In this document: positions 1-9,869 of the stretch, piece by piece | Layout: the number at the start of each line of letters is the position of its first letter | Position numbering within the stretch: the stretch's first letter is position 1 | Origin: Fibrobacterales bacterium | GTDB taxonomy: Bacteria > Fibrobacterota > Fibrobacteria > Fibrobacterales > JAOPTW01 | Assembly: GCA_051532055.1 (NCBI GenBank) | Contig: JAOPTX010000036.1 | Location: 1 to 64,000, forward strand | Direction of reading: 5' to 3' | DNA: 64,000 nucleotides | Translations under genes and position numbers: made by a program | Notes under the pieces: generated by a model | Databases searched by the model: none | Told to the model about the DNA's origin: nothing | Seen by the model: only the letters and a program-made list of their open reading frames with translations

Positions 1-559
1 CTGCTCCTGCGCCAGTAGAAATGCTGAGAGAACCGGTAGTAAGGGCATCAATAGACATTGTGATGTTATCAACTCCCGCACTGTCATTTGCACCAATGTG
101 AAGTATTGATGATGATGATCCACTGGTTCCGAATGAATTTGCACCATTACCGATGAGGGTTTGTGTGTTATATTGGGTGGCATTTGCAATTCGGTCTATT
201 TCATCACCGAGGGCAACATACTCCTGTTGTAGATATGATCTATCAGTTGAAGTAAGAGTGTCATTGGCAGATTGTACAGAAAGTTCACGCATTCTTTGAA
301 GAATACTTGAAATCTCATTAGCCGCCCCTTCAGCAACTTGTAGTAGTGCAACGCCATCTTGTGCATTAGATTTTGCACGATTTAATCCTCTAACCTGAGT
401 ACGTAACTGTTCCGAAACTGAGAGCCCTGCGGCATCATCAGCAGCTCGGTTGATACGTAGTCCGGTAGATAGTTTTTCAAGTGATTTTCCCAGTCCATTA
501 TTTGCACTTGCAAGTGAATTCTGGGTTATCAACGAATTGATGTTGTGGTTAATACGCAT
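1..559 (-). CDS. fliC: Flagellin fla1 (partial; 3' end runs off the left edge)
   Basis: ATG at 557-559 gives MRINHNINSLITQNSLASANNGLGKSLEKLSTGLRINRAADDAAGLS..., near-identical to fla4/fla6; not in the ORF track because there is no stop in the window. Confidence 0.95.
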   Translation of the reverse strand, partial: MRINHNINSLITQNSLASANNGLGKSLEKLSTGLRINRAADDAAGLSVSEQLRTQVRGLNRAKSNAQDGVALLQVAEGAANEISSILQRMRELSVQSANDTLTSTDRSYLQQEYVALGDEIDRIANATQYNTQTLIGNGANSFGTSGSSSSILHIGANDSAGVDNITMSIDALTTGSLSISTGAGA

Positions 560-602
560 AATAAACCTCCATGTTTTTTTGCGTCAGCTGCTTCCGTGCA
601 GC
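560..602 (-). promoter_or_regulatory. CsrA-type binding hairpins in the fla1 leader
   Basis: GCTGC-ACGGAA-GCAGC (587-602) and AAAC-ATGGAG-GTTT overlapping the SD. Confidence 0.75.
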
Positions 603-630
603 CAGTAGGTGTAGTAACTCCTATTATGAT

Positions 631-658
631 AGATCGGAGGGGGGGGGAGGAAACTTTA
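631..658 (-). promoter_or_regulatory. sigma28 (FliA)-type promoter of fla1, with a G9/C9 tract in the spacer
   Basis: Minus strand TAAAGTTT-N12-TCCGATCT; consensus TAAAGTTT-N11-GCCGATAA. Confidence 0.8.
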
Positions 659-897
659 ATTGTTTTCTTAAGTTTTACCTTAAGGAGTGAATTAAGTTTT
701 GTGTTAGGTGCAATGAAGAATTATGAACGGTGTTAAATGTCGTAGTGTAATGTGAAGGATTGTAAGCATCAAAAGAGTATAGGTGGCTCTATGAGAAACA
801 CATCTGTGTGTTTGTTATAGCGGTACGAATGCTCAATGGCGAATTACAAAATCCCTGACTGATTTTTAATCATAGCTATTTAATGAGCTTGATTGTC

Positions 898-1764
898 CTA
901 GCCAATAAGCGCTAGTGCCGCTTGTGGTGTGGCGTTAGACTGCGCCAACATTGACGTAGAAGATTGGGTTAGTATTTGATTACGGGTGAGTTGAGTCGAT
1001 TCCGAGGCGAAATCGACATCACGAATGCGTGACTCCGCATCTTGAGTATTGAACTCTTGATTGTAGATGTTGTTCATAGCATGTTCAAGCCTATTTACAA
1101 AAGCACCCACATTTGATCGCATAGTATTGACTGATGTTATTGCTGAATCTATTGCGGTAATAGAGCTCATTGCAGCGCTTTGCGTTGAAACACCGATGGT
1201 AGTAGTGGCACCGGCTGCAGTAGAGATACCTAAGGAACCGGTAGTAATGGCATCAATGCTAATAGCAATGTTATCAATACCGGTACCGGCATTGACCCCA
1301 ATTTGTAGAATCGATGATGAAGACCCACTTGCGCCAAATCTGTTGGGCCCATCGCCGATCACTGTTTGAGTATTGTATTGAGTGGCATTTGCAATACGAT
1401 CTATTTCGTCTGCGAGAGCGACATACTCTTGTTGCAGGTAGCTTCTGTCAGTAGAGGTGAGAGTGTCATTCGCAGACTGTACTGAGAGTTCACGCATTCT
1501 TTGAAGGGTCGAAGAAATTTCATTGGCGGCGCCCTCTGCAATTTGCAGGAGAGCAACTCCATCTTGCGCATTAGCGCGCGCCCGCCCGAGTCCACGTATT
1601 TGTGTGCGGAGTTCTTCAGATACAGAGAGTCCGGCAGCGTCATCCGATGCGTGATTAATCCGTAACCCAGTCGATAACTTTTGCAATGATGAATTCAGGC
1701 TGCTATTGGCTTTGCCAAGCGCGTCCTGTGTAATCATAGAACTGATGTTATGGTTAATCCGCAC
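898..1764 (-). CDS. fliC: Flagellin fla2 (288 aa, GTG start)
   Basis: Flagellin N-terminal motif (LSTGLRINHASDDAAGL) and C-terminal motif (AESRIRDVDFASE...MLAQSN). Confidence 0.97.
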   Translation of the reverse strand: MRINHNISSMITQDALGKANSSLNSSLQKLSTGLRINHASDDAAGLSVSEELRTQIRGLGRARANAQDGVALLQIAEGAANEISSTLQRMRELSVQSANDTLTSTDRSYLQQEYVALADEIDRIANATQYNTQTVIGDGPNRFGASGSSSSILQIGVNAGTGIDNIAISIDAITTGSLGISTAAGATTTIGVSTQSAAMSSITAIDSAITSVNTMRSNVGAFVNRLEHAMNNIYNQEFNTQDAESRIRDVDFASESTQLTRNQILTQSSTSMLAQSNATPQAALALIG

Positions 1765-1768
1765 GTTC

Positions 1769-1860
1769 AGCCTCCTTGCCTCTTTGCGCCTGTAACTTCC
1801 ATGTTACAGGGGGTGTCTTACCCTATTAAAGAGTATCGGCGAGGCTCAAGTAAAACTTTA
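1769..1860 (-). promoter_or_regulatory. sigma28 promoter and CsrA hairpins of fla2
   Basis: TAAAGTTT-N12-GCCGATAC (1833-1860); CCTGTAAC-ATGGAA-GTTACAGG (1789-1810); GGC-AAGGAG-GCT at the SD. Confidence 0.8.
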
Positions 1861-1939
1861 GCGTTATTTCAGTATTTGCTTCAGGTTTTGCATCGTGTTG
1901 TTGAAAATATCAATGAGGAAATAAAAAAATCTAAAAACC

Positions 1940-1972
1940 AAAAAAGGGGCCGGCGAATGCCGGCCCCTTTTT
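1940..1972 (-). terminator. Intrinsic terminator after fla3 (bidirectional geometry)
   Basis: AAAAAGGGGCCGGC-GAAT-GCCGGCCCCTTTTT. Confidence 0.85.
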
Positions 1973-1993
1973 GAACATGGTATTGTTTTAAGG

Positions 1994-2854
1994 TTACCCG
2001 AGGAGTGCGAGTGCCCCTTGTGGGACAGCATTTGCTTGCGCTAACATTGATGTTGATGATTGGGTTAGTATTTGATTTTTGGTAAATCGTGTTGATTCGG
2101 TAGCAAAGTCTACATCTCTGATTCTCGATTCCGCATCCTGTGTATTAAATTCCTGATTGTTTATATTGTTTATTGCGTGCTCAAGTCGGTTTACGTACGC
2201 ACCCATATCTGAGCGCATTGCATTGACAGAATTGATGGCAATATCAAGGGACGAAATTGCTAACATTGCAGCAGATTGCGTGGATACACCCGATGCCCCT
2301 GTTCCACCTGTAGTAATAGAGAGTGACCCTGTCGTAATAGAATCAATGCCTATCGAGATGTTGTCGATTCCCGCTTGGTTGTTTGCACCAACGTGAAGAA
2401 TAGAGGCAATAGAGCCGCTTGCCCCAAAAGTATTTGCGCCATTCCCAATTAGAGTCATGGTATTGTATTGAGCAGAGTTTGCAATGCGGTCAATTTCATC
2501 GGCAAGTGCTGTATATTCTTGCTGTAGATAAGAACGATCGACAGAGGTAAGGGTATCATTCGCTGACTGAATTGAAAGCTCTCTCATTCGTTGTAATATA
2601 GAAGTGATTTCGTTTGCGGCCCCCTCTGCTACTTGTAAGAGGGCGACGCCATCTTGAGCATTGAGTTTGGCCCGAGCAAGTCCTCGTACCTGAGTACGAA
2701 GTTCTTCAGAAACTGAGAGTCCTGCAGCATCGTCTGCAGCTCTATTAATTCTGAGTCCAGTAGATAGTTTTTCAAGTGATTTGCCCAGGGTCCCATTAGC
2801 AGCGTAGAGTGCATTTTGGGTGATCATTGCCGAGATATTATGATTTATACGCAT
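1994..2854 (-). CDS. fliC: Flagellin fla3 (286 aa)
   Basis: Flagellin motifs; start moved from 2905 to the MRINHN ATG at 2852-2854, which has a GGAGG SD like its paralogs. Confidence 0.97.
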   Translation of the reverse strand: MRINHNISAMITQNALYAANGTLGKSLEKLSTGLRINRAADDAAGLSVSEELRTQVRGLARAKLNAQDGVALLQVAEGAANEITSILQRMRELSIQSANDTLTSVDRSYLQQEYTALADEIDRIANSAQYNTMTLIGNGANTFGASGSIASILHVGANNQAGIDNISIGIDSITTGSLSITTGGTGASGVSTQSAAMLAISSLDIAINSVNAMRSDMGAYVNRLEHAINNINNQEFNTQDAESRIRDVDFATESTRFTKNQILTQSSTSMLAQANAVPQGALALLG

Positions 2855-2857
2855 TGT

Positions 2858-2946
2858 AAACCTCCATGTTCTTTTGCGTGTTCGCCGCATCCTTGCGACT
2901 GTCATGTTCTATATCTCTTATATCGCTTATGAAAAGAATTACTTAA
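2858..2946 (-). promoter_or_regulatory. Degenerate sigma28 promoter and CsrA hairpins of fla3
   Basis: CGCA-AGGA-TGCG (2886-2897); AACATGGAGG at the SD; TTAAGT...GCGATAT promoter-like (about 2920-2946). Confidence 0.6.
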
Positions 2947-3032
2947 TACTTTTTGCTAAGAAAGTTTCAAAAAAACAAATAAACCCAAAAAACTTAAAGT
3001 TAAATATATTGTGAAAGTTAAGAATGTGAAGT

Positions 3033-3065
3033 AAAAAGTAAAGCACCGCCTGGGGGCGGTGCTTT
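3033..3065 (-). terminator. Intrinsic terminator after fla4
   Basis: Minus strand AAAGCACCGCC-CCCA-GGCGGTGCTTT followed by ACTTTTT. Confidence 0.8.
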
Positions 3066-3094
3066 GAAAAAATGATATAGGGTTAAGTGAATGA

Positions 3095-3961
3095 TTATCC
3101 AATAAGAGCGAGTGCTCCTTGTGGAACTGCATTTGCTTGTGCCAACATCGAAGTAGATGATTGAGTAAGAATCTGGTTTCTTGTGAAGCTGGTAGATTCT
3201 GTTGCAAAGTCTACATCTCTAATACGTGATTCCGCATCTTGAGTATTAAACTCTTGATTCGAAATATTATTCATTGCATGTTCAAGACGATTTACATAGG
3301 CACCCATGTCTGATCTCATGGTGTTCACTGATGTAATTGCAGTATCAATAGCGGTAATTGATGCCATAGCTGCAGCTTGAGTAGACACGCCTATTGTAGT
3401 AGTCGCGCCTGTTCCTGTTGAAATACCAAGTGACCCAGTAGTAAGAGCATCAATTGACATTGTGATGTTATCAACACCGACATTATCATTTGCACCAATG
3501 TGAAGGATTGAAGATGAAGAGCCGCTTGTACCAAAAGCATTCGCACCATTACCAATGAGTGTTTGAGTATTGTATTGAGTCGCATTTGCAATACGGTCGA
3601 TTTCATCACCGAGTGCCACATATTCCTGCTGTAGATATGATCTATCAGTAGAAGTAAGGGTGTCATTCGCTGATTGAACCGAGAGTTCTCTCATTCTTTG
3701 AAGAATAGAAGAGATCTCATTTGCTGCACCCTCAGCTACCTGTAAGAGTGCAACGCCGTCTTGGGCATTTGATTTTGCTCTACCAAGACCACGTACTTGT
3801 GTTCTTAATTGTTCGGAAACAGAGAGTCCCGCTGCATCATCTGCTGCTCGGTTAATCCGTAGACCGGTTGAGAGTTTTTCCAGTGATTTTCCAAGTCCGT
3901 TATTTGCCGCACCGAGAGCATTCTGGGTAATAAGTGAATTGATGTTGTGATTAATACGCAT
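3095..3961 (-). CDS. fliC: Flagellin fla4 (288 aa)
   Basis: Flagellin N/C motifs; near-duplicate of fla6. Confidence 0.97.
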   Translation of the reverse strand: MRINHNINSLITQNALGAANNGLGKSLEKLSTGLRINRAADDAAGLSVSEQLRTQVRGLGRAKSNAQDGVALLQVAEGAANEISSILQRMRELSVQSANDTLTSTDRSYLQQEYVALGDEIDRIANATQYNTQTLIGNGANAFGTSGSSSSILHIGANDNVGVDNITMSIDALTTGSLGISTGTGATTTIGVSTQAAAMASITAIDTAITSVNTMRSDMGAYVNRLEHAMNNISNQEFNTQDAESRIRDVDFATESTSFTRNQILTQSSTSMLAQANAVPQGALALIG

Positions 3962-3962
3962 T

Positions 3963-4066
3963 ATAAACCTCCATGTTTATTGGTATCCTGCATCCTTGCA
4001 GTTGTTAGGAAAGCAGTAAGTCTGAATTCCTTTTAAACATATCGACGGTAGTGATTTAAAACTTGA
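3963..4066 (-). promoter_or_regulatory. sigma28 promoter and CsrA hairpins of fla4
   Basis: TCAAGTTT-N12-GTCGATAT (4039-4066); CTGCA-AGGA-TGCAG (3988-4001); ATAAAC-ATGGAG-GTTTAT at the SD. Confidence 0.78.
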
Positions 4067-4185
4067 AGTAATTCTTACTAAAATGTTAAATATTGAAATT
4101 AAAACAGGAGTTATAGTTGTAGTAGGGGCCACTATAGCTCTTTAAAGCTATGGCCAGGGGGCTGGTTATTGTGCGGGGAGAGGGC

Positions 4186-4220
4186 AAAAAAATAAAGCCC
4201 CCTGTAGGAAGGAGACTTTA
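4186..4220 (-). terminator. Intrinsic terminator (sRNA A / fla5)
   Basis: TAAAGTCTCCT-TCCTAC-AGGGGGCTTTA followed by T7. Confidence 0.75.
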
Positions 4221-4282
4221 CTTTGGAGTTAGTACTGGGTGTTACCCGAGTTGTGCATCTGCGTATCAAACATATGCACAAT
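4186..4282 (-). ncRNA. Candidate antisense sRNA A (independent transcript or fla5 3'UTR-derived), complementary to the fla7 leader and start
   Basis: Hairpin TTGTGCAT-(15-nt loop)-ATGCACAA whose loop is antisense to ATGCGTATCAATCATA; a second block antisense to 8359-8384; ends in terminator 4186-4220; upstream TAAAGTTT-N12-CCCTATAT (4285-4312). Confidence 0.55.
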
Positions 4283-4395
4283 ATATATAGGGAGAATTTC
4301 GTTAAAACTTTAGACCTTTTTATATTTTGGTATGAACGAGGGAATAATGCTGTGCATAAAAAGAGGGATTGGTTATAACGATGGAGCGTTGATTA

Positions 4396-5988
4396 CTACC
4401 CGATAAGGGTAAGTGCAGCATTGGAAACACCATTAGCTTGCGAGAGCATGGCGGTTGCAGACTGTGTTAGGATCTGCTGTTTGGTAAATGCAGTAGATTC
4501 TGTTGCAAAATCAACATCGCGAATACGAGACTCTGCATCTTGTTGATTGAACTCTTGATTGTGTAAATTTTGAATTGAGTGTTCAAGGCGATTGATATGG
4601 GCGCCCACATCAGAGCGTTTTGTTGAGACTGTTGAGATAGCCGTTCCAACGACACCGATACTGGCGTGTGCACCAGTACGACTGCCAACTGAGGCGGCGT
4701 CAACTCCTAGGGCACCACCAGAAACAGATCCTAAGCCATCGAGATCCATTGTGTCGACATCTTCTACGGCATTTGCGCCAATATGCATTTGGAGTGCCTC
4801 ACCAATATCAAATGAGACTCCGGTAAAGCCTTCACCTGTGATAGTGGTTCCGACTTGATCACCAAATGCTGATGCATAGGCTGGGTCTCCAGTATTAAGA
4901 TTTTGTGCTAAAAACCCTGCCTCAAAAGCGGCATAAGTACCGCCAAAAGTTGCAGTTATATTTGCTTCGAGTTGTGCTGATCCACTAATGGTTGTTCCGT
5001 AGATGTCATCAATAGAGCCTGCGCCATTTTGGATAAACATTGCGGCAAGATACGCAGTTGCATAATCTTCATCTGAACCACTCCATGTATTATGGTCAAT
5101 ACTTCCGCCACTTGCAAATGATGACGCCGCTATAATTGCAGCAGTATTGGCGTAACTCCCTGCTAATAAGCTGGTAACCCGAGACTCACCGCCAGCATTA
5201 CTTGCTTCAGCAGCACCTTCGGAGAACCATGTGGGTGGCTGATGTCCATTGATATACTGAAGGGCATGGGTCATTTCGTGAGAGAGAATATCTTGGGCGG
5301 AAAAAACGTTACCGAGGTGATTCATGGGTCCGTCAGCGTTGGCATCCCCTGTTACCTGGGCATTAAAATCATCTAAATCGAGGTTAATGACCGCTTGAGT
5401 ACCGTCAGATCCGCCAGTGGCTAAGAGACCTGCTTCACCATCCATGTTTTCGCCAGTGACGTGGAGGTTGCCAAAGGCCGATAGATTGCTATAGGCATTT
5501 TGTACCGTGGCAGCCGCCCCGGGAAGCCAGTCATTTGTCAGTTTGTCTATTAATTCTTCTGCGTTATCAGCTCCGCCACGTAATACTTGAATGCCATTAT
5601 ATTGTGTAGCATCATTTATGCGAGTCAATTCTTCTGAAAGAGCAGTGAATTCTTGATCGATATATGAGCGGTCTTCATCAGTAAGGGTGTCACTTGCAGA
5701 TTGTATTGCTAATTGGCGTTGGCGCTGTAAAATAGAGTGAGCTTCATTCATCGCCCCTTCAGCAACTTGAAGAAGGGCGACGCCATCCTCCGCATTGTGT
5801 CGGGCACGATTATTACCTCTGATTTGAGATCGCAGTTGTTCGGAAACAGAGAGTCCGGCAGCATCATCAGAAGCGCGATTAATCCGCAAGCCCGTAGAGA
5901 GCTTATGCAGAGAATCACCCAAAGCATTGTTCGCTGAATTAAGCGAATTCTGGGTAATAAGTGCGCTGATGTTGTGATTGATCCTCAA
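4396..5988 (-). CDS. fliC: Flagellin fla5 with inserted gluzincin metallopeptidase domain (flagellinolysin-like), 530 aa, TTG start
   Basis: Flagellin N/C domains flank a ~240-aa insert with SHEMTHALQ (HExxH, 5266-5280) and PTWFSEGAAE (5206-5229). Confidence 0.9.
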   Translation of the reverse strand: MRINHNISALITQNSLNSANNALGDSLHKLSTGLRINRASDDAAGLSVSEQLRSQIRGNNRARHNAEDGVALLQVAEGAMNEAHSILQRQRQLAIQSASDTLTDEDRSYIDQEFTALSEELTRINDATQYNGIQVLRGGADNAEELIDKLTNDWLPGAAATVQNAYSNLSAFGNLHVTGENMDGEAGLLATGGSDGTQAVINLDLDDFNAQVTGDANADGPMNHLGNVFSAQDILSHEMTHALQYINGHQPPTWFSEGAAEASNAGGESRVTSLLAGSYANTAAIIAASSFASGGSIDHNTWSGSDEDYATAYLAAMFIQNGAGSIDDIYGTTISGSAQLEANITATFGGTYAAFEAGFLAQNLNTGDPAYASAFGDQVGTTITGEGFTGVSFDIGEALQMHIGANAVEDVDTMDLDGLGSVSGGALGVDAASVGSRTGAHASIGVVGTAISTVSTKRSDVGAHINRLEHSIQNLHNQEFNQQDAESRIRDVDFATESTAFTKQQILTQSATAMLSQANGVSNAALTLIG

Positions 5989-5991
5989 AAC

Positions 5992-6082
5992 CTACATCCG
6001 TGTTACTAAAAAGAAACGCCTTCCGCTTCCATGCGGATTTAGGCCCTATTGCATTGATCGGCCGCCTAGAGTAAAATCTTGA
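5992..6082 (-). promoter_or_regulatory. sigma28 promoter and CsrA sites of fla5
   Basis: TCAAGATT-N12-GCCGATCA (6055-6082); TCCGC-ATGGAA-GCGGA (6022-6037); ACACGGATGT (5994-6003) next to the start. Confidence 0.8.
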
Positions 6083-6183
6083 GCAAAAATTTAAAAAAAG
6101 TTAAGCAAAATACTCATAAGAAAGCGAAGGCAAAACTTAATGCGGTGCATGAGCGAGGACCGCTTGTAATAAGTGAAAAAACT

Positions 6184-6208
6184 AAAAAGACCAGCTGATG
6201 CTGGTCTT
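6184..6208 (-). terminator. Intrinsic terminator after fla6
   Basis: AAGACCAGC-ATCA-GCTGGTCTTTTT. Confidence 0.8.
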
Positions 6209-6236
6209 AAATGGATTGTCTTTTGAATGAGAATGG

Positions 6237-7103
6237 TTATCCAATAAGAGCGAGTGCTCCTTGTGGAACTGCATTTGCTTGTGCCAACATCGAAGTAGAT
6301 GATTGAGTAAGAATCTGGTTTCTGGTGAAGCTGGTAGATTCTGTTGCAAAGTCCACATCTCTAATACGTGATTCCGCATCTTGAGTATTAAACTCTTGAT
6401 TCGCAATATTGTTCATTGCATGTTCAAGACGATTTACATAGGCACCCATATCTGATCTCATGGTGTTCACTGAGGTAATTGCCGTATCAATAGCGGTAAT
6501 TGATGCCATGGCTGCTGCCTGTGTTGAAACGCCAACAGTCGTTCCTGCTCCTGCTCCAGTAGAAATACTGAGAGAACCAGTAGTAAGGGCATCAATAGAC
6601 ATTGTGATATTGTCAACGCCAACATTGTCATTTGCACCAATGTGAAGGATTGAAGATGAAGAGCCGCTTGTACCAAAAGCATTCGCGCCATTGCCAATGA
6701 GTGTTTGAGTATTGTATTGAGTCGCATTTGCAATACGGTCGATTTCATCACCGAGTGCTACATATTCTTGCTGCAGATATGATCTATCAGTAGAAGTAAG
6801 GGTGTCATTCGCTGATTGAACCGAGAGCTCTCTCATTCTTTGGAGAATAGAAGAGATCTCATTTGCCGCACCCTCAGCAACCTGTAAGAGTGCAACGCCA
6901 TCTTGAGCATTTGATTTTGCTCTATTAAGACCACGTACTTGTGTTCTTAATTGTTCGGAAACAGAGAGTCCCGCTGCATCATCTGCTGCGCGATTAATCC
7001 GTAGTCCGGTAGAGAGTTTTTCTAGTGACTTTCCAAGTCCGTTGTTAGCGGAGCCAAGAGCATTTTGAGTAATTAATGAATTGATGTTGTGATTAATACG
7101 CAT
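6237..7103 (-). CDS. fliC: Flagellin fla6 (288 aa)
   Basis: Flagellin N/C motifs. Confidence 0.97.
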   Translation of the reverse strand: MRINHNINSLITQNALGSANNGLGKSLEKLSTGLRINRAADDAAGLSVSEQLRTQVRGLNRAKSNAQDGVALLQVAEGAANEISSILQRMRELSVQSANDTLTSTDRSYLQQEYVALGDEIDRIANATQYNTQTLIGNGANAFGTSGSSSSILHIGANDNVGVDNITMSIDALTTGSLSISTGAGAGTTVGVSTQAAAMASITAIDTAITSVNTMRSDMGAYVNRLEHAMNNIANQEFNTQDAESRIRDVDFATESTSFTRNQILTQSSTSMLAQANAVPQGALALIG

Positions 7104-7106
7104 AGT

Positions 7107-7193
7107 AAACCTCCATGTTTTGCGTGTTTGCCACTTCCGTGTGGCACTTAAGTCTCTAATAGAAGTATCGGTAAAACCTAAAGGAGATCTTTA
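7107..7193 (-). promoter_or_regulatory. sigma28 promoter and CsrA hairpins of fla6
   Basis: TAAAGATC-N13-ACCGATAC (7165-7193); TGCCAC-ACGGAA-GTGGCA (7129-7146); AAAC-ATGGAG-GTTT at the SD. Confidence 0.78.
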
Positions 7194-7318
7194 GAAAAAA
7201 ATAGAGAGAGGCGATAAAAGCTGGATATTTTTTAGAAAGCTAAAGTGGAACTAAATGAAGAATCTAGAGTGAAACCTGGGGCTGATGTTAATGATTGTTT
7301 TTTGGTTGATTTGAGGCG

Positions 7319-7343
7319 AAAAAAAAAGGGTCATTTCTGACCC
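7319..7343 (-). terminator. Intrinsic terminator after fla7
   Basis: GGGTCA-GAAA-TGACCC followed by T9. Confidence 0.85.
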
Positions 7344-7384
7344 CTCGTGCATTAAAGTTCTTTTTAAAAAGTGTACTGTCTTAT

Positions 7385-8242
7385 TTATCCGATAAGAGCA
7401 AGTGCACTTTGTGGTGCTGCATTTGCTTGTGCCAACATAGAAACAGATGACTGGGTTAATATTTGGGTTCTGGTAAACTCAGTTGATTCAGATGCGAAAT
7501 CAACATCACGAATTCGAGATTCAGCATCTTGCGAGTTAAACTCTTGGTTCGAAATATTGGTCATTGCATGTTCAAGTCTATTCACATAGGCGCCAATATC
7601 TGAACGCATCGAGTTTACTGAGGCAATTGCAGAGTCGAGTGTGGTTATTGCTGTTGTTGCTGCAGCTTGTGTTGAAACACCGACAGCCCCCGTACCGCTG
7701 GTACTAATACTGAGTGACCCCGAGGTCAGTGCAGTCATCGATATAGTGACGCTGTCAGCGGAAGTCGCATTAGCCCCAATATGGAGTACTGATGATGATG
7801 AACCAGAGGCGCCAAATGAGTTGGTTCCTCCATCTATGAGTGTTTGCCCATTGTATTGTGAACTGCTTGAGATACGGTCAACTTCTGCAGCAAGCGCTGA
7901 GAACTCTTGATCGAGATAGCCGCGGTCTGTTGAGGTGAGGGTGTCATTCGCCGCTTGAACCGAGAGTTCCCGCATTCTTTGGAGAATTTCTGACATCTCA
8001 TTTGCAGCACCTTCAGCAACTTGAAGAAGCGCTACGCCATCTTGTGCATTGGCCTTTGCGCGGCCCAGACCTCTGATTTGTGAACGTAACTGTTCAGAAA
8101 CAGAGAGTCCCGCAGCATCATCAGCGGCTCTATTGATTCTAAGACCAGTTGAAAGTTTTTCGAGTGATTTACCCATATTGGTATTTGCATTCGCAAGTGA
8201 GTTTTGGGTAATAAGTGAATTGATGTTATGATTGATACGCAT
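7385..8242 (-). CDS. fliC: Flagellin fla7 (285 aa)
   Basis: Flagellin N/C motifs; closest to fla8. Confidence 0.97.
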   Translation of the reverse strand: MRINHNINSLITQNSLANANTNMGKSLEKLSTGLRINRAADDAAGLSVSEQLRSQIRGLGRAKANAQDGVALLQVAEGAANEMSEILQRMRELSVQAANDTLTSTDRGYLDQEFSALAAEVDRISSSSQYNGQTLIDGGTNSFGASGSSSSVLHIGANATSADSVTISMTALTSGSLSISTSGTGAVGVSTQAAATTAITTLDSAIASVNSMRSDIGAYVNRLEHAMTNISNQEFNSQDAESRIRDVDFASESTEFTRTQILTQSSVSMLAQANAAPQSALALIG

Positions 8243-8243
8243 G

Positions 8244-8420
8244 ATAAACCTCCATGTTTATTTCTGAACAAAGCAGTGGCCCTACACCATGCAGTGTTCT
8301 ATGCATTTGTGCCACATCCATGTGGCGGGTTTTGTGTTTGGGACTGGTCTGGATTGATACTCCGTAACAGCCTGTATTAACTCCTATTTCATATTTCGGA
8401 GAGGCTTACTGAAATCTTTA
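8244..8420 (-). promoter_or_regulatory. sigma28 promoter and long (~145 nt) leader of fla7 with CsrA hairpins
   Basis: TAAAGATT-N12-TCCGAAAT (8393-8420); GCCACA-TGGA-TGTGGC (8311-8326); ATAAAC-ATGGAG-GTTTAT at the SD. Confidence 0.75.
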
Positions 8421-8545
8421 ATGTTTTTTTTGCAAAAAAAATGAAAACTGTTTATTATATGAAATAAATGGCCAATGCGTCCCATACGGGCCATATATAA
8501 AAAGAGAATTAGAAAGGGGATTTTGAAATGCTGGAGGTAGAAATT

Positions 8546-8617
8546 AAAAAAGCCCAAACGGAGCGGGCCTTTTTAAAAAGATTTGTGTACGGAAATACAC
8601 ATCAACCTTTAATGCAT
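8546..8617 (-). ncRNA. Candidate sigma28-driven antisense sRNA B (~70 nt) complementary to the fla8 leader
   Basis: Lies after the fla8 terminator; own promoter TAAAGTTT-N12-AACGATAT (8623-8650); hairpin TGTGTA-TTTCCG-TACACA; terminator GGCCC-GCTCCGTTT-GGGCTTTTTT; no ORF; 15/15 and 14/15 complementarity to 9687-9701 and 9627-9641. Confidence 0.7.
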
Positions 8618-8669
8618 TTATAATATCGTTTTATGACAATTAAAACTTTAGAGAAATATGAGAGAAAAT

Positions 8670-8699
8670 AAAAAAGACCGAAATTTTCATTTCGGCCTT
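8670..8699 (-). terminator. Intrinsic terminator after fla8
   Basis: AAGGCCGAAAT-GAAA-ATTTCGGTCTTTTTT. Confidence 0.85.
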
Positions 8700-8746
8700 C
8701 GGAGTTAATACCTGCGTATCAGGTATTGGTGTATTGTAGGGTACTT

Positions 8747-9604
8747 TTAATTGAGGAGTGCAAGGGCAGACTGCGGAGCAGTATTTGCCTGCGCTAACAT
8801 AGAGACAGATGATTGAGTCAAAATCTGAGTTCTGGTGAACTCGGTTGATTCTGAAGCAAAATCCACATCACGAATCCGTGATTCCGCATCTTGTGTGTTA
8901 AACTCCTGATTGGCGAGATTGTTGATTGCATGTTCGAGTCTATTCACATAGGCGCCAACATCAGATCTCATGGTATTTACTGAGGTGATTGCAGTATCTA
9001 TTGACGATATTGCCGTGAGTGCAGATGCTTGAGTTGATACGCCCACCGCACTTGTTCCTGATGTAGATATAGCAAGTGATCCAGTAGTGAGGGCGCTCAT
9101 TGATATACTAATACTGTCTGAAGTTGTTGCATTTGCACCGATATGGAGTACCGATGATGATGAACCGCTCACACCAAAAGAGCTGTTGCCGCCATCGATG
9201 AGGGTCTGTCCATTGTACTGAGAGCTATTGGATATTCTATCGACTTCTGCAGCGAGTGAACTAAACTCCTGATCGAGATATCCACGATCAGTTGAAGTCA
9301 ATGTATCATTTGCTGCCTGTACAGAGAGTTCTCTCATTCTTTGCAAAACTTCAGAAATCTCATTTGCGGCTCCTTCCGCTACTTGTAGTAGCGCAATGCC
9401 GTCTTGTGCATTTGCTTTTGCACGACCGAGCCCTCTGATTTGTGAACGTAATTGCTCTGATACTGAGAGTCCTGCAGCATCATCTGCAGCTGTATTGATT
9501 CTGAGTCCAGTAGAAAGTTTTTGTAGTGATTCGCCCATTTTGCCATTCGCATGAGCAAGCGCGTTCTGAGTTATCAACGAATTGATATTGTGATTGATAC
9601 GCAT
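8747..9604 (-). CDS. fliC: Flagellin fla8 (285 aa)
   Basis: Flagellin N/C motifs. Confidence 0.97.
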   Translation of the reverse strand: MRINHNINSLITQNALAHANGKMGESLQKLSTGLRINTAADDAAGLSVSEQLRSQIRGLGRAKANAQDGIALLQVAEGAANEISEVLQRMRELSVQAANDTLTSTDRGYLDQEFSSLAAEVDRISNSSQYNGQTLIDGGNSSFGVSGSSSSVLHIGANATTSDSISISMSALTTGSLAISTSGTSAVGVSTQASALTAISSIDTAITSVNTMRSDVGAYVNRLEHAINNLANQEFNTQDAESRIRDVDFASESTEFTRTQILTQSSVSMLAQANTAPQSALALLN

Positions 9605-9750
9605 TATAAACCTCCGTGTTTATAAAGATGTGTACTTCCGTGTATTGGTGATATTCGTATTATTTCCGTAAACGAGTATCTCTGTTTGCATTAAAGGTTG
9701 AGGATATGAAGTCCTCCTTAAAATTATCGGGAGGATTATCAAAATCTTTA
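9605..9750 (-). promoter_or_regulatory. sigma28 promoter and leader of fla8 with several ANGGA sites
   Basis: TAAAGATT-N11-CCCGATAA (9724-9750); TAC-ACGGAA-GTA (about 9633-9644); TTATAAAC-ACGGAG-GTTTATAA at the SD; TACGGAAATA (9661-9670). Confidence 0.8.
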
Positions 9751-9869
9751 GAGAAAACTTTAAATAAAGTTATGGAAAAGAAATAAACTTTTTAAAGTGC
9801 CTTTAATTGCGATTAAAAGAGGTTTTTTTAGAGAGTGAGATAGGGGGTTTGTGACACCGATAACGATTA

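Follow-up and report, generated by a model that had tools for sequence, protein, structure and literature searches.

The locus considered here raises the following question: does the untranslated region at the 3' end (3'UTR) of one flagellin mRNA control the translation of another flagellin gene of the same array? The DNA analyzed, here called the window, comprises the first 64 kb of contig C36 from the 5.17-Mb, 94%-complete genome of an uncultured flagellated Fibrobacterales bacterium. The minus strand of positions 1-9604 carries eight tandem flagellin genes, here called fla1 to fla8 in order of increasing coordinate, with fla8 upstream-most and fla7 following it. The original prediction held that the fla8 3'UTR contains two antisense seeds, identical and in identical order to those of a free-standing small RNA of the array (sRNA A), and that the fla8 mRNA, or a 3' fragment of it, may regulate fla7. 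For this element, the sequence, the predicted fold, the conservation and the predicted specificity of pairing were computed and, at the level of prediction, the shared seeds, the conservation of 49 nucleotides out of 49 and the specificity of co-folding support that reading. The answer that we favor, with moderate confidence, is that the fla8 3'UTR would act as a FlaX/FliX-like riboregulator repressing the translation of the downstream paralog fla7.

The closest relatives of these flagellins all come from Fibrobacterota MAGs, and the fla8 protein is 99% identical to its orthologue in one other species of the genus (G001, hereafter the congener). All leaders of the array contain a hairpin with a GGA loop and a second GGA in the Shine-Dalgarno (SD) sequence, and a pair of adjacent fliW and csrA genes is present in the genome; a ninth flagellin gene is located directly upstream of this pair, on another contig (G000:C10:98805-100383). 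Models of Hfq (PF17209) and ProQ (PF04352) had no matches in the 94%-complete genome, which encodes an RNase E/G homologue. The array is possibly larger than its assembled copies, since the contigs of this genome (G000, window 1) and of the congener (end of L012) both break inside fla1. A separate observation concerns a 530-aa flagellin (4396-5988, minus strand) with a large central insert that includes HEMTH, an HExxH motif, near 5266-5280; the Pfam matches of this protein are the flagellin N and C domains only, and the insert is, we presume, reminiscent of protease-bearing flagellins.

The fla8 3'UTR element and its predicted target sites

The element (8701-8727) is found 19 nt past the fla8 stop codon (8747-8749), directly before the intrinsic terminator. 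The minus strand from 8727 to 8701 reads AATACCTGATACGCAGGTATTAACTCC, that is, AAUACCUG-AUACG-CAGGUAUU-AACUCC, exactly as had been described for the interval between stop codon and terminator. In the predicted fold, an 8-bp hairpin partly masks both seeds and leaves the loop AUACG exposed, with the tail of seed 2, AACUCC, unpaired; alternatively, the CUCC of this tail can pair with the SD sequence GGAG. Hairpin followed by terminator is predicted to fold with an energy of -24.2 kcal/mol (z = -5.5), and none of 200 shuffled sequences folds as well. If a 3' fragment is released, the processing cut would be expected in the unpaired segment between the stop codon and the hairpin (Table 1).

Is the element an independent transcription unit? 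Consensus scans revealed neither a sigma-70-like nor a sigma-28-like promoter upstream of it on the same strand, in contrast to the six sigma-28-type matches that precede flagellin or sRNA units in the array. Because no promoter-like site of its own lies upstream and a terminator lies downstream, the element appears to be part of the fla8 transcript. With its position between the stop codon and a shared terminator, and with no promoter of its own in consensus scans, it corresponds, in these two respects, to the 3'UTR-embedded (type II) class of sRNAs. In the metatranscriptome run X1, 47% of the sampled words are present and the flagellin array is represented in RNA; one RNA contig begins at 8692, inside the ascending arm of the terminator, and the bin 8401-8800 is covered, although this run, used as contigs only, carries no information on transcript ends, a processed fragment or the expression level. 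At gathering thresholds, Rfam yielded no matches in the 64-kb window, and the three sub-threshold matches in 3900-9800 (E 0.05-0.99) all fall outside the element. The element, AAUACCUGAUACGCAGGUAUUAACUCC, contains no GGA motif and, hence, does not qualify as a CsrA decoy.

Seed 1, TGATACGCA (8713-8721), has exact complements at 8233-8241, in the start region of fla7, and at 9595-9603, in that of fla8; this 9-mer occurs four times in the window against 0.47 expected, and at least four occurrences were reached in 0 of 100 shuffles. Seed 2, GTATTAACTCC (8701-8711), is complementary at 11 of 11 positions to 8374-8384 in the fla7 leader and at 10 of 11 to the corresponding place in the fla1 leader (611-621), and its core TAACTCC alone is not enriched (9 in the window against 7.1 expected; at least 9 in 29 of 100 shuffles). 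The matches anticipated for both seeds (9/9 to the fla7 and fla8 start regions; 11/11 to the fla7 leader and 10/11 to fla1) are thus all found where they had been placed. The combination is rare genome-wide: the pattern TGATACGCAG-N(1-40)-TAACTCC occurs in exactly two places in 5.17 Mb, the element and 4225-4268 within sRNA A, which confirms that the two share the seeds in the same order, and the reversed control pattern has no matches. Other single seed occurrences in the genome are in unrelated, apparently coding sequence and look like chance.

The location of the second target site depends on the assigned start of fla7 transcription, which was predicted from promoter spacing. A reading of the array places sigma-28-type promoter-like sequences upstream of the flagellin genes, and a search with an N17 sigma-28-type pattern found them for fla1, fla2, fla4 and fla7 as well as for two small non-coding units; there are 13 matches in the window against 4.5 expected, a number reached in 0 of 100 shuffles. 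Target site 2 follows the sigma-28-type -10 element at a distance of 8-9 nt and would, therefore, form the very beginning of the fla7 mRNA; with a start at least 3 nt further downstream than predicted, part of the site would be lost. Two further features of the fla7 leader were noted. By predicted transcription starts, it is about 145 nt long, compared to roughly 60-100 nt for the other flagellins, and its first ~35 nt (8350-8386, minus strand), GGAGUUAAUAC...GUAUCAAUCC, resemble a degenerate flagellin SD-plus-start region.

Table 1. Features of the fla8-fla7 region and the two small RNAs (window coordinates)
Feature	Position	Strand	Basis or remark
fla8 flagellin CDS, 285 aa, first of the array	8747..9604	-	ORF list; start motif MRINHN
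Unpaired 5' part of the fla8 3'UTR, AAGUACCCUACAAUACACC	8728..8746	-	predicted fold; identical in G001
Hairpin AAUACCUG-AUACG-CAGGUAUU	8707..8727	-	predicted fold; hairpin alone -8.1 kcal/mol
Seed 1, UGAUACGCA, complementary to UGCGUAUCA at the start codon	8713..8721	-	9-bp duplex -11.9 kcal/mol
Seed 2, GUAUUAACUCC, antisense to the predicted fla7 mRNA 5' end	8701..8711	-	11-bp duplex -13.6 kcal/mol
fla8 intrinsic terminator, 12-bp stem, GAAA loop, T-run	8665..8700 (stem 8700-8673)	-	terminator scan and fold
sRNA B (8545-8618) with sigma-28-type promoter (8624-8650) and terminator	8545..8650	-	conserved in G001
fla7 sigma-28-type promoter, TAAAGATTT-N-TCCGAAAT	8393..8420	-	pattern match, 1 mismatch; identical in G001
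Target site 2, GGAGUUAAUAC, about +1..+13 of the predicted fla7 transcript	8374..8384	-	identical in G001
Target site 1, UGCGUAUCA, U of the fla7 AUG through codon 3	8233..8241	-	co-fold pairing with seed 1
fla7 flagellin CDS, 285 aa, predicted target	7385..8242	-	86% identical to fla8
sRNA A including sigma-28-type promoter (4286-4312) and terminator	4186..4312	-	pattern match, conserved block

Predicted pairing, conservation and the alternatives

Pairing was computed as windowed duplexes and then as full co-folds that include intramolecular structure. By the first measure, 22 nt of the element, CUGAUACGCAGGUAUUAACUCC, pair contiguously with the SD-to-start region (CUCC:GGAG, GGUA:UAUC and UGAUACGCA:UGCGUAUCA). 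The resulting duplex has an energy of -23.4 kcal/mol with fla7, -23.0 with fla8, -21.1 with fla6, -17 to -19 with four other flagellins and -11.5 with the long flagellin fla5L; the fla7 and fla8 values were reached in 0 of 300 and 0 of 400 dinucleotide shuffles, respectively. The first 25 nt of the fla7 leader form a still stronger duplex (-24.8 kcal/mol) than the SD-to-start region. Opening the 22 nt of the element, where most of both seeds are inside the 8-bp hairpin, costs about 10.8 kcal/mol.

The co-folds of the 79-nt fla8 3'UTR with each of the eight predicted flagellin 5' regions single out one partner. For fla7, the ddG is -14.0 kcal/mol, compared to -0.4 to -5.9 for the other seven leaders; shuffled elements give a mean of -3.7 (sd 2.4), and -14.0 was reached in 0 of 150. 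In the minimum-energy co-fold, seed 1 sits on UGCGUAUCA and seed 2 on GGAGUUAAUAC simultaneously, and the fla7 leader between the two sites keeps its own hairpins. Thus, fla7 comes out as the preferred partner, with pairing at exactly the two sites that had been proposed. The energy of a single site, however, is not specific, as 14 unrelated sites in the genome score better: in a genome-wide seed-and-extend scan with 2,340 seeded sites, the fla7 5' site (-24.8 kcal/mol) ranks 17, a rank that also counts two matches at the element locus itself. Hence, it is not the energy alone but the location, the cooperativity of the two sites, the conservation and the twin sRNA that carry the case.

On these predictions, the following mechanism can be envisaged. 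The acting unit would be a 21-nt bipartite antisense element, UGAUACGCA-G-GUAUUAACUCC, carried on the sigma-28-dependent fla8 mRNA, either full-length or as a fragment of about 60-80 nt that ends at the fla8 terminator. Pairing in the cell would be initiated where the element is accessible, in the loop AUACG and in the tail AACUCC, upon which the 8-bp hairpin would open and the element would clamp together the extreme 5' end of the fla7 mRNA, GGAGUUAAUAC, and the region of its start codon, UGCGUAUCA. The fla7 leader of roughly 130 nt, with its CsrA-type GGA hairpin, would be looped out and the start codon occluded; we infer that the direction of regulation is negative, such that fla7 translation would fall as the fla8 mRNA rises. 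The 5'-end site would serve as the specificity anchor of the interaction, and sRNA A would be a longer, free-standing relative aimed at the same two fla7 sites.

Could the element instead act in cis? By local duplex, it is about equally complementary to the start region of its own gene, and it might pair with the fla8 SD/start region and thereby throttle fla8 translation or alter fla8 mRNA decay, the fla7 match being a side effect of near-identical start regions. There are precedents for such action, icaR in Staphylococcus aureus (PMC3868564) and hbs in Bacillus subtilis (PMC5737220), as far as these are described in the cited sources. A partial parallel is found in the nearest other flagellated family (G005, locus L014, contig G005:C124), where the 3'UTR (3514-3580) of a fla8-like gene, although of a different sequence, matches the 5' portion of the gene's own leader as an antisense (ddG -16.2, 0 of 150 shuffles). 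In that locus, however, the same 3'UTR shows equal complementarity to the downstream paralog, in its SD-to-start region (ddG -16.2, 0 of 150 shuffles), and the duplex that it forms with the SD-to-start region of its own gene does not stand out, 82 of 400 shuffles being as good. Likewise, when intramolecular structure is taken into account, the full co-fold of the element with the fla8 5' region yields only -4.6 to -5.1 kcal/mol, compared to -14.0 for fla7, and the seed 2 match, complete in fla7 and present at 10 of 11 positions in fla1, is absent from the fla8 leader. Accordingly, we consider the cis-acting reading unlikely and continue to favor fla7 as the target.

The comparison with the congener bears on whether the element is maintained by selection at all. 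The array is syntenic between the two genomes, with 87.6% identity over 8.9 kb and in the same orientation. The third codon positions, which are identical at 213 of 286 sites in fla8 (0.745) and 202 of 286 in fla7, and the spacer 8421-8544 (80 of 124; 0.645) show how far sequence has diverged between the two; against this background of 65-75% neutral-like identity, the fla8 3'UTR is identical at 76 of 79 positions and, from the stop codon to the terminator stem, at 49 of 49. The fla7 promoter and leader are almost as invariant (175 of 178). Elements for which only the structure matters do drift between these genomes, as judged from the fla7 terminator, whose stem is kept through sequence changes in the congener. 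Taken together, the 49/49 identity, the level of neutral-like divergence and the drift of structure-only elements indicate a constraint on the exact sequence of the element, and purifying selection on the fla8 3'UTR appears clear from this comparison. The expectation that the seeds would be conserved in a related array is therefore borne out. Both the seeds and the fla7 sites are invariant in the congener, so that within the genus there is no variation from which covariation of the pair could be read.

The original prediction went further and held that the reuse of both seeds argues for selection. Selection is indeed indicated, by the 49/49 identity, but reuse in the sense of independent invention does not hold: the element reads as sRNA A minus its middle 23 nt, the two look homologous and, therefore, the shared seeds are better seen as retained after common descent. 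This kinship invites another view of the element, namely that it is an evolutionary by-product of tandem duplication, in the course of which leader, start and 3'UTR modules were copied in both orientations, with the hairpin serving only as a stability or termination structure. Possible traces of such copying can be seen. Read in reverse complement, the element resembles a flagellin SD-to-start region in which GGAG is followed, after 7 nt, by CUG instead of AUG and then by CGU AUC; a degenerate version of the same module seems to make up the first 35 nt of the fla7 leader, and sense copies occur too, for example, CACCAAUAC in both the fla8 leader and the fla8 3'UTR; furthermore, UACG-type loops recur in the flagellin 3'UTR hairpins of other lineages and could be merely stable loops. 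What this account does not explain is the constraint itself: the 49/49 identity extends to unpaired positions and is not that of a stem alone, unlike the drifting fla7 terminator, and sRNA A keeps the same seeds behind a promoter of its own. The by-product reading, hence, seems improbable to us, and a regulatory element directed at fla7 remains the interpretation that we prefer.

The least attractive option, a DNA-level inverted repeat functioning as an invertible promoter switch or as a protein-binding palindrome, is very hard to credit: the arms (8701-8724 and 8361-8384), complementary at 11 of 11 positions and, with wobble and mismatch, over about 23 nt (-24.8 kcal/mol as RNA), do bracket about 316 bp that include sRNA B together with the terminator of fla8 and the promoter of fla7, but there is no recombinase among the seven neighboring ORFs scanned, no strand-switch joint in the X1 contigs (which can miss them), and a single orientation, shared by the congener, while the third seed copy, in sRNA A 4.5 kb away, comes with its own promoter and terminator, which indicates that the seeds are used at the RNA level.

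Small RNAs of the array and of other Fibrobacterota

In sRNA A, the two seeds are 23 nt apart. Compared with the congener, this RNA forms a conserved island, from the -35 element to the T-run, inside flanks that are 70-74% identical, and the base of its first hairpin shows a compensatory change from G-C to A-U. Its co-fold with fla7 has a ddG of -16.3 kcal/mol, compared to -9.3 or weaker elsewhere, and the predicted pairing reaches well beyond the two short seeds, with 20 bp at the start codon and its surroundings and another 22 bp within leader positions 3-28. The impression is that sRNA A derives from an ancestral, short fla7 5' region copied in antisense.

A second small RNA, sRNA B, is encoded in the interval that separates the terminator of fla8 from the promoter of fla7. 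Its predicted target is the fla8 leader, which would make it part of the same circuit. Co-folding gives a ddG of -17.2 kcal/mol with the fla8 leader, and none of the other seven leaders does better than -5.2. Positions 6-20 of the fla8 leader are matched perfectly, over 15 nt, by the 5' end of sRNA B, and the hairpin region of sRNA B complements the CsrA-type GGA hairpin of fla8 over 15 nt with one G-U pair. The fla7 3'UTR, in turn, contains a 29-nt block, GUACACUUUUUAAAAAGAACUUUAAUGCA (7348-7376, minus strand), that is identical in the congener, next to a terminator that changes with compensation; the first 21 nt of the block, GUACACUUUUUAAAAAGAAC, also occur in the metagenome contig L094, which ends at that point. 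This block is predicted to pair with the seed of sRNA B (ddG -12.9 kcal/mol, 0 of 200 shuffles) and is a candidate sponge for it. Together, the predicted links from sRNA B to fla8 and from the fla7 3'UTR to sRNA B would close a feedback loop that connects fla7 and fla8.

These predictions can be assembled into a more ambitious scheme, in which the array is a closed, apparently chaperone-independent RNA-RNA circuit with mRNA tails as regulators and sponges: the fla8 3'UTR and sRNA A would clamp the fla7 5' end and start codon, sRNA B would clamp the fla8 leader, and the fla7 3'UTR block would soak up sRNA B. We offer this scheme tentatively, as it is rather doubtful in its entirety. If it is true, mutual sensing of their mRNAs, layered on FliW-CsrA control, would set the proportion of the two flagellins that resemble each other most, with the modules of the circuit having arisen by sense and antisense copying of leader pieces during tandem duplication.

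How far does the arrangement extend beyond the genus? In the context of flagellin genes, the two-motif pattern was found in only two of 41 genomes, those of the present bacterium and of the congener. A relaxed pattern, searched in 40 relatives, occurs at the flagellin-array position in the congener only; in the seven other matches, the intervening sequences are unrelated. Three close metagenomic relatives (L093-L095) encode flagellins with 83-87% amino-acid identity on contigs of about 1 kb, on which no fla8-type 3'UTR was seen; L094 and L095 are fla7-like, on contigs that start immediately past site 2.

Across this array and 24 others, 67 flagellin 3'UTRs were compared by alignment score with cross-array controls, and no general complementarity between 3'UTRs and start regions of the same array emerged: 5 of the 67 outscored every cross-array control, where chance would, by our estimate, account for about 3-4. 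Four loci considered as further cases of 3'UTR-to-start complementarity (L015, L044, L179 and L188) were set aside, 1-15 of 400 shuffles being as good. The motif RTACGC, present in 6 of 68 3'UTRs of other lineages compared to 1 of 68 for a control motif, was also rejected, as it may be no more than a reflection of UACG-type loops.

Small transcripts associated with flagellins are, by comparison, a recurrent feature; in other flagellated Fibrobacterota, they are located downstream of flagellin genes. Behind sigma-28-type promoters next to flagellin genes, such transcripts (L173 2641-2740, L096 1303-1400, L015 3937-4030 and L191 1973-2080) contain 9-10-nt exact complements of their own local start regions, as identified by eye and without shuffles, and the sequence of these complements differs from lineage to lineage. 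A weaker, anti-SD version, also recognized by eye, is found in L020 (1369-1500) and L100; with these included, the set amounts to 8 of the 13 promoter-plus-T-run candidates listed. Given these recurring small transcripts with complements of local starts, antisense control of flagellin start regions looks like a habit of the lineage, whereas support for the 3'UTR-embedded form comes from this genus alone and, in another form, from G005.

Comparison with known regulators of flagellin synthesis

To our knowledge, gamma-proteobacteria are the only group in which riboregulators of flagellin 3'UTR origin have been described; these are FliX and FlaX, and they depend there on Hfq or ProQ. The closer of the two parallels is FlaX of Vibrio cholerae, which is described as an RNA of about 265 nt that is transcribed from the flaA promoter, released by RNase E from the flaA 3'UTR and stabilized by ProQ; it represses the paralog flaB via three sites in the 5'UTR and, acting partly through a ribosome standby site, prevents 30S subunits from binding and alters the composition of the filament (PMC11879080). 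The fla8 element is similar to FlaX, so described, in being encoded in a flagellin 3'UTR, in using the promoter of the parent gene and in having several separate, here predicted, sites in the 5' region of a paralog mRNA. The differences are also substantial. Instead of about 265 nt, there are about 21 nt of seed in a 79-nt 3'UTR; FlaX needs ProQ, whereas neither ProQ nor Hfq was found in this genome; and the predicted sites are not simply in the 5'UTR but at the extreme 5' end of the target and at the start codon itself. There is no sequence relationship between the two RNAs, which belong to different phyla.

FliX of Escherichia coli is sigma-28-dependent, derives from the fliC 3'UTR and acts negatively on flagellin; according to its description, it is a ligand of Hfq, base-pairs within the coding regions of fliC and the S10 operon and probably promotes cleavage (PMC10578931). 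The fla8 element shares with FliX the sigma-28 dependence, the origin in a flagellin 3'UTR, a negative action on flagellin, here proposed, and the coexistence with other sigma-28-dependent sRNAs, but its predicted sites, at the start codon of a paralog and at the 5' end of that paralog's mRNA, contrast with pairing within coding sequences. The free-standing twin, sRNA A, is a feature that we count as a difference from both FlaX and FliX.

Pairing of an mRNA segment with a ribosome-binding region, without a dedicated sRNA gene, is also represented by the interaction between the 5' and 3' UTRs of icaR in S. aureus (PMC3868564) and by the mRNA-mRNA interaction between hly and prsA2 in Listeria (PMC8722363). 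The element resembles both, in so far as a 3'UTR or mRNA segment is antisense to a ribosome-binding region in the published outlines; however, icaR acts within one molecule, whereas the thermodynamically preferred partner of the fla8 3'UTR is another mRNA. The relation to FliW-CsrA-flagellin homeostasis, as outlined for B. subtilis (PMC6529632) and Campylobacter jejuni (PMC4894983), is one of layering: the same flagellin mRNAs are likely clients, considering their GGA leaders and the fliW-csrA pair, but the element would add to CsrA control a further layer, based on RNA-RNA pairing.

If the proposed function is true, Fibrobacterota would possess a non-homologous counterpart of the gamma-proteobacterial RNAs, and cross-talk of paralogs via mRNA tails would be a recurrent way to set filament composition. 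The mode of action would be regulation by the joint clamping of the 5' terminus and the start codon, and the classical chaperones, on which FliX and FlaX rely, may be dispensable for it. For an uncultured lineage, the 79-nt 3'UTR and the roughly 145-nt leader constitute a compact pair, accompanied by further predicted RNA-RNA links in the same array.
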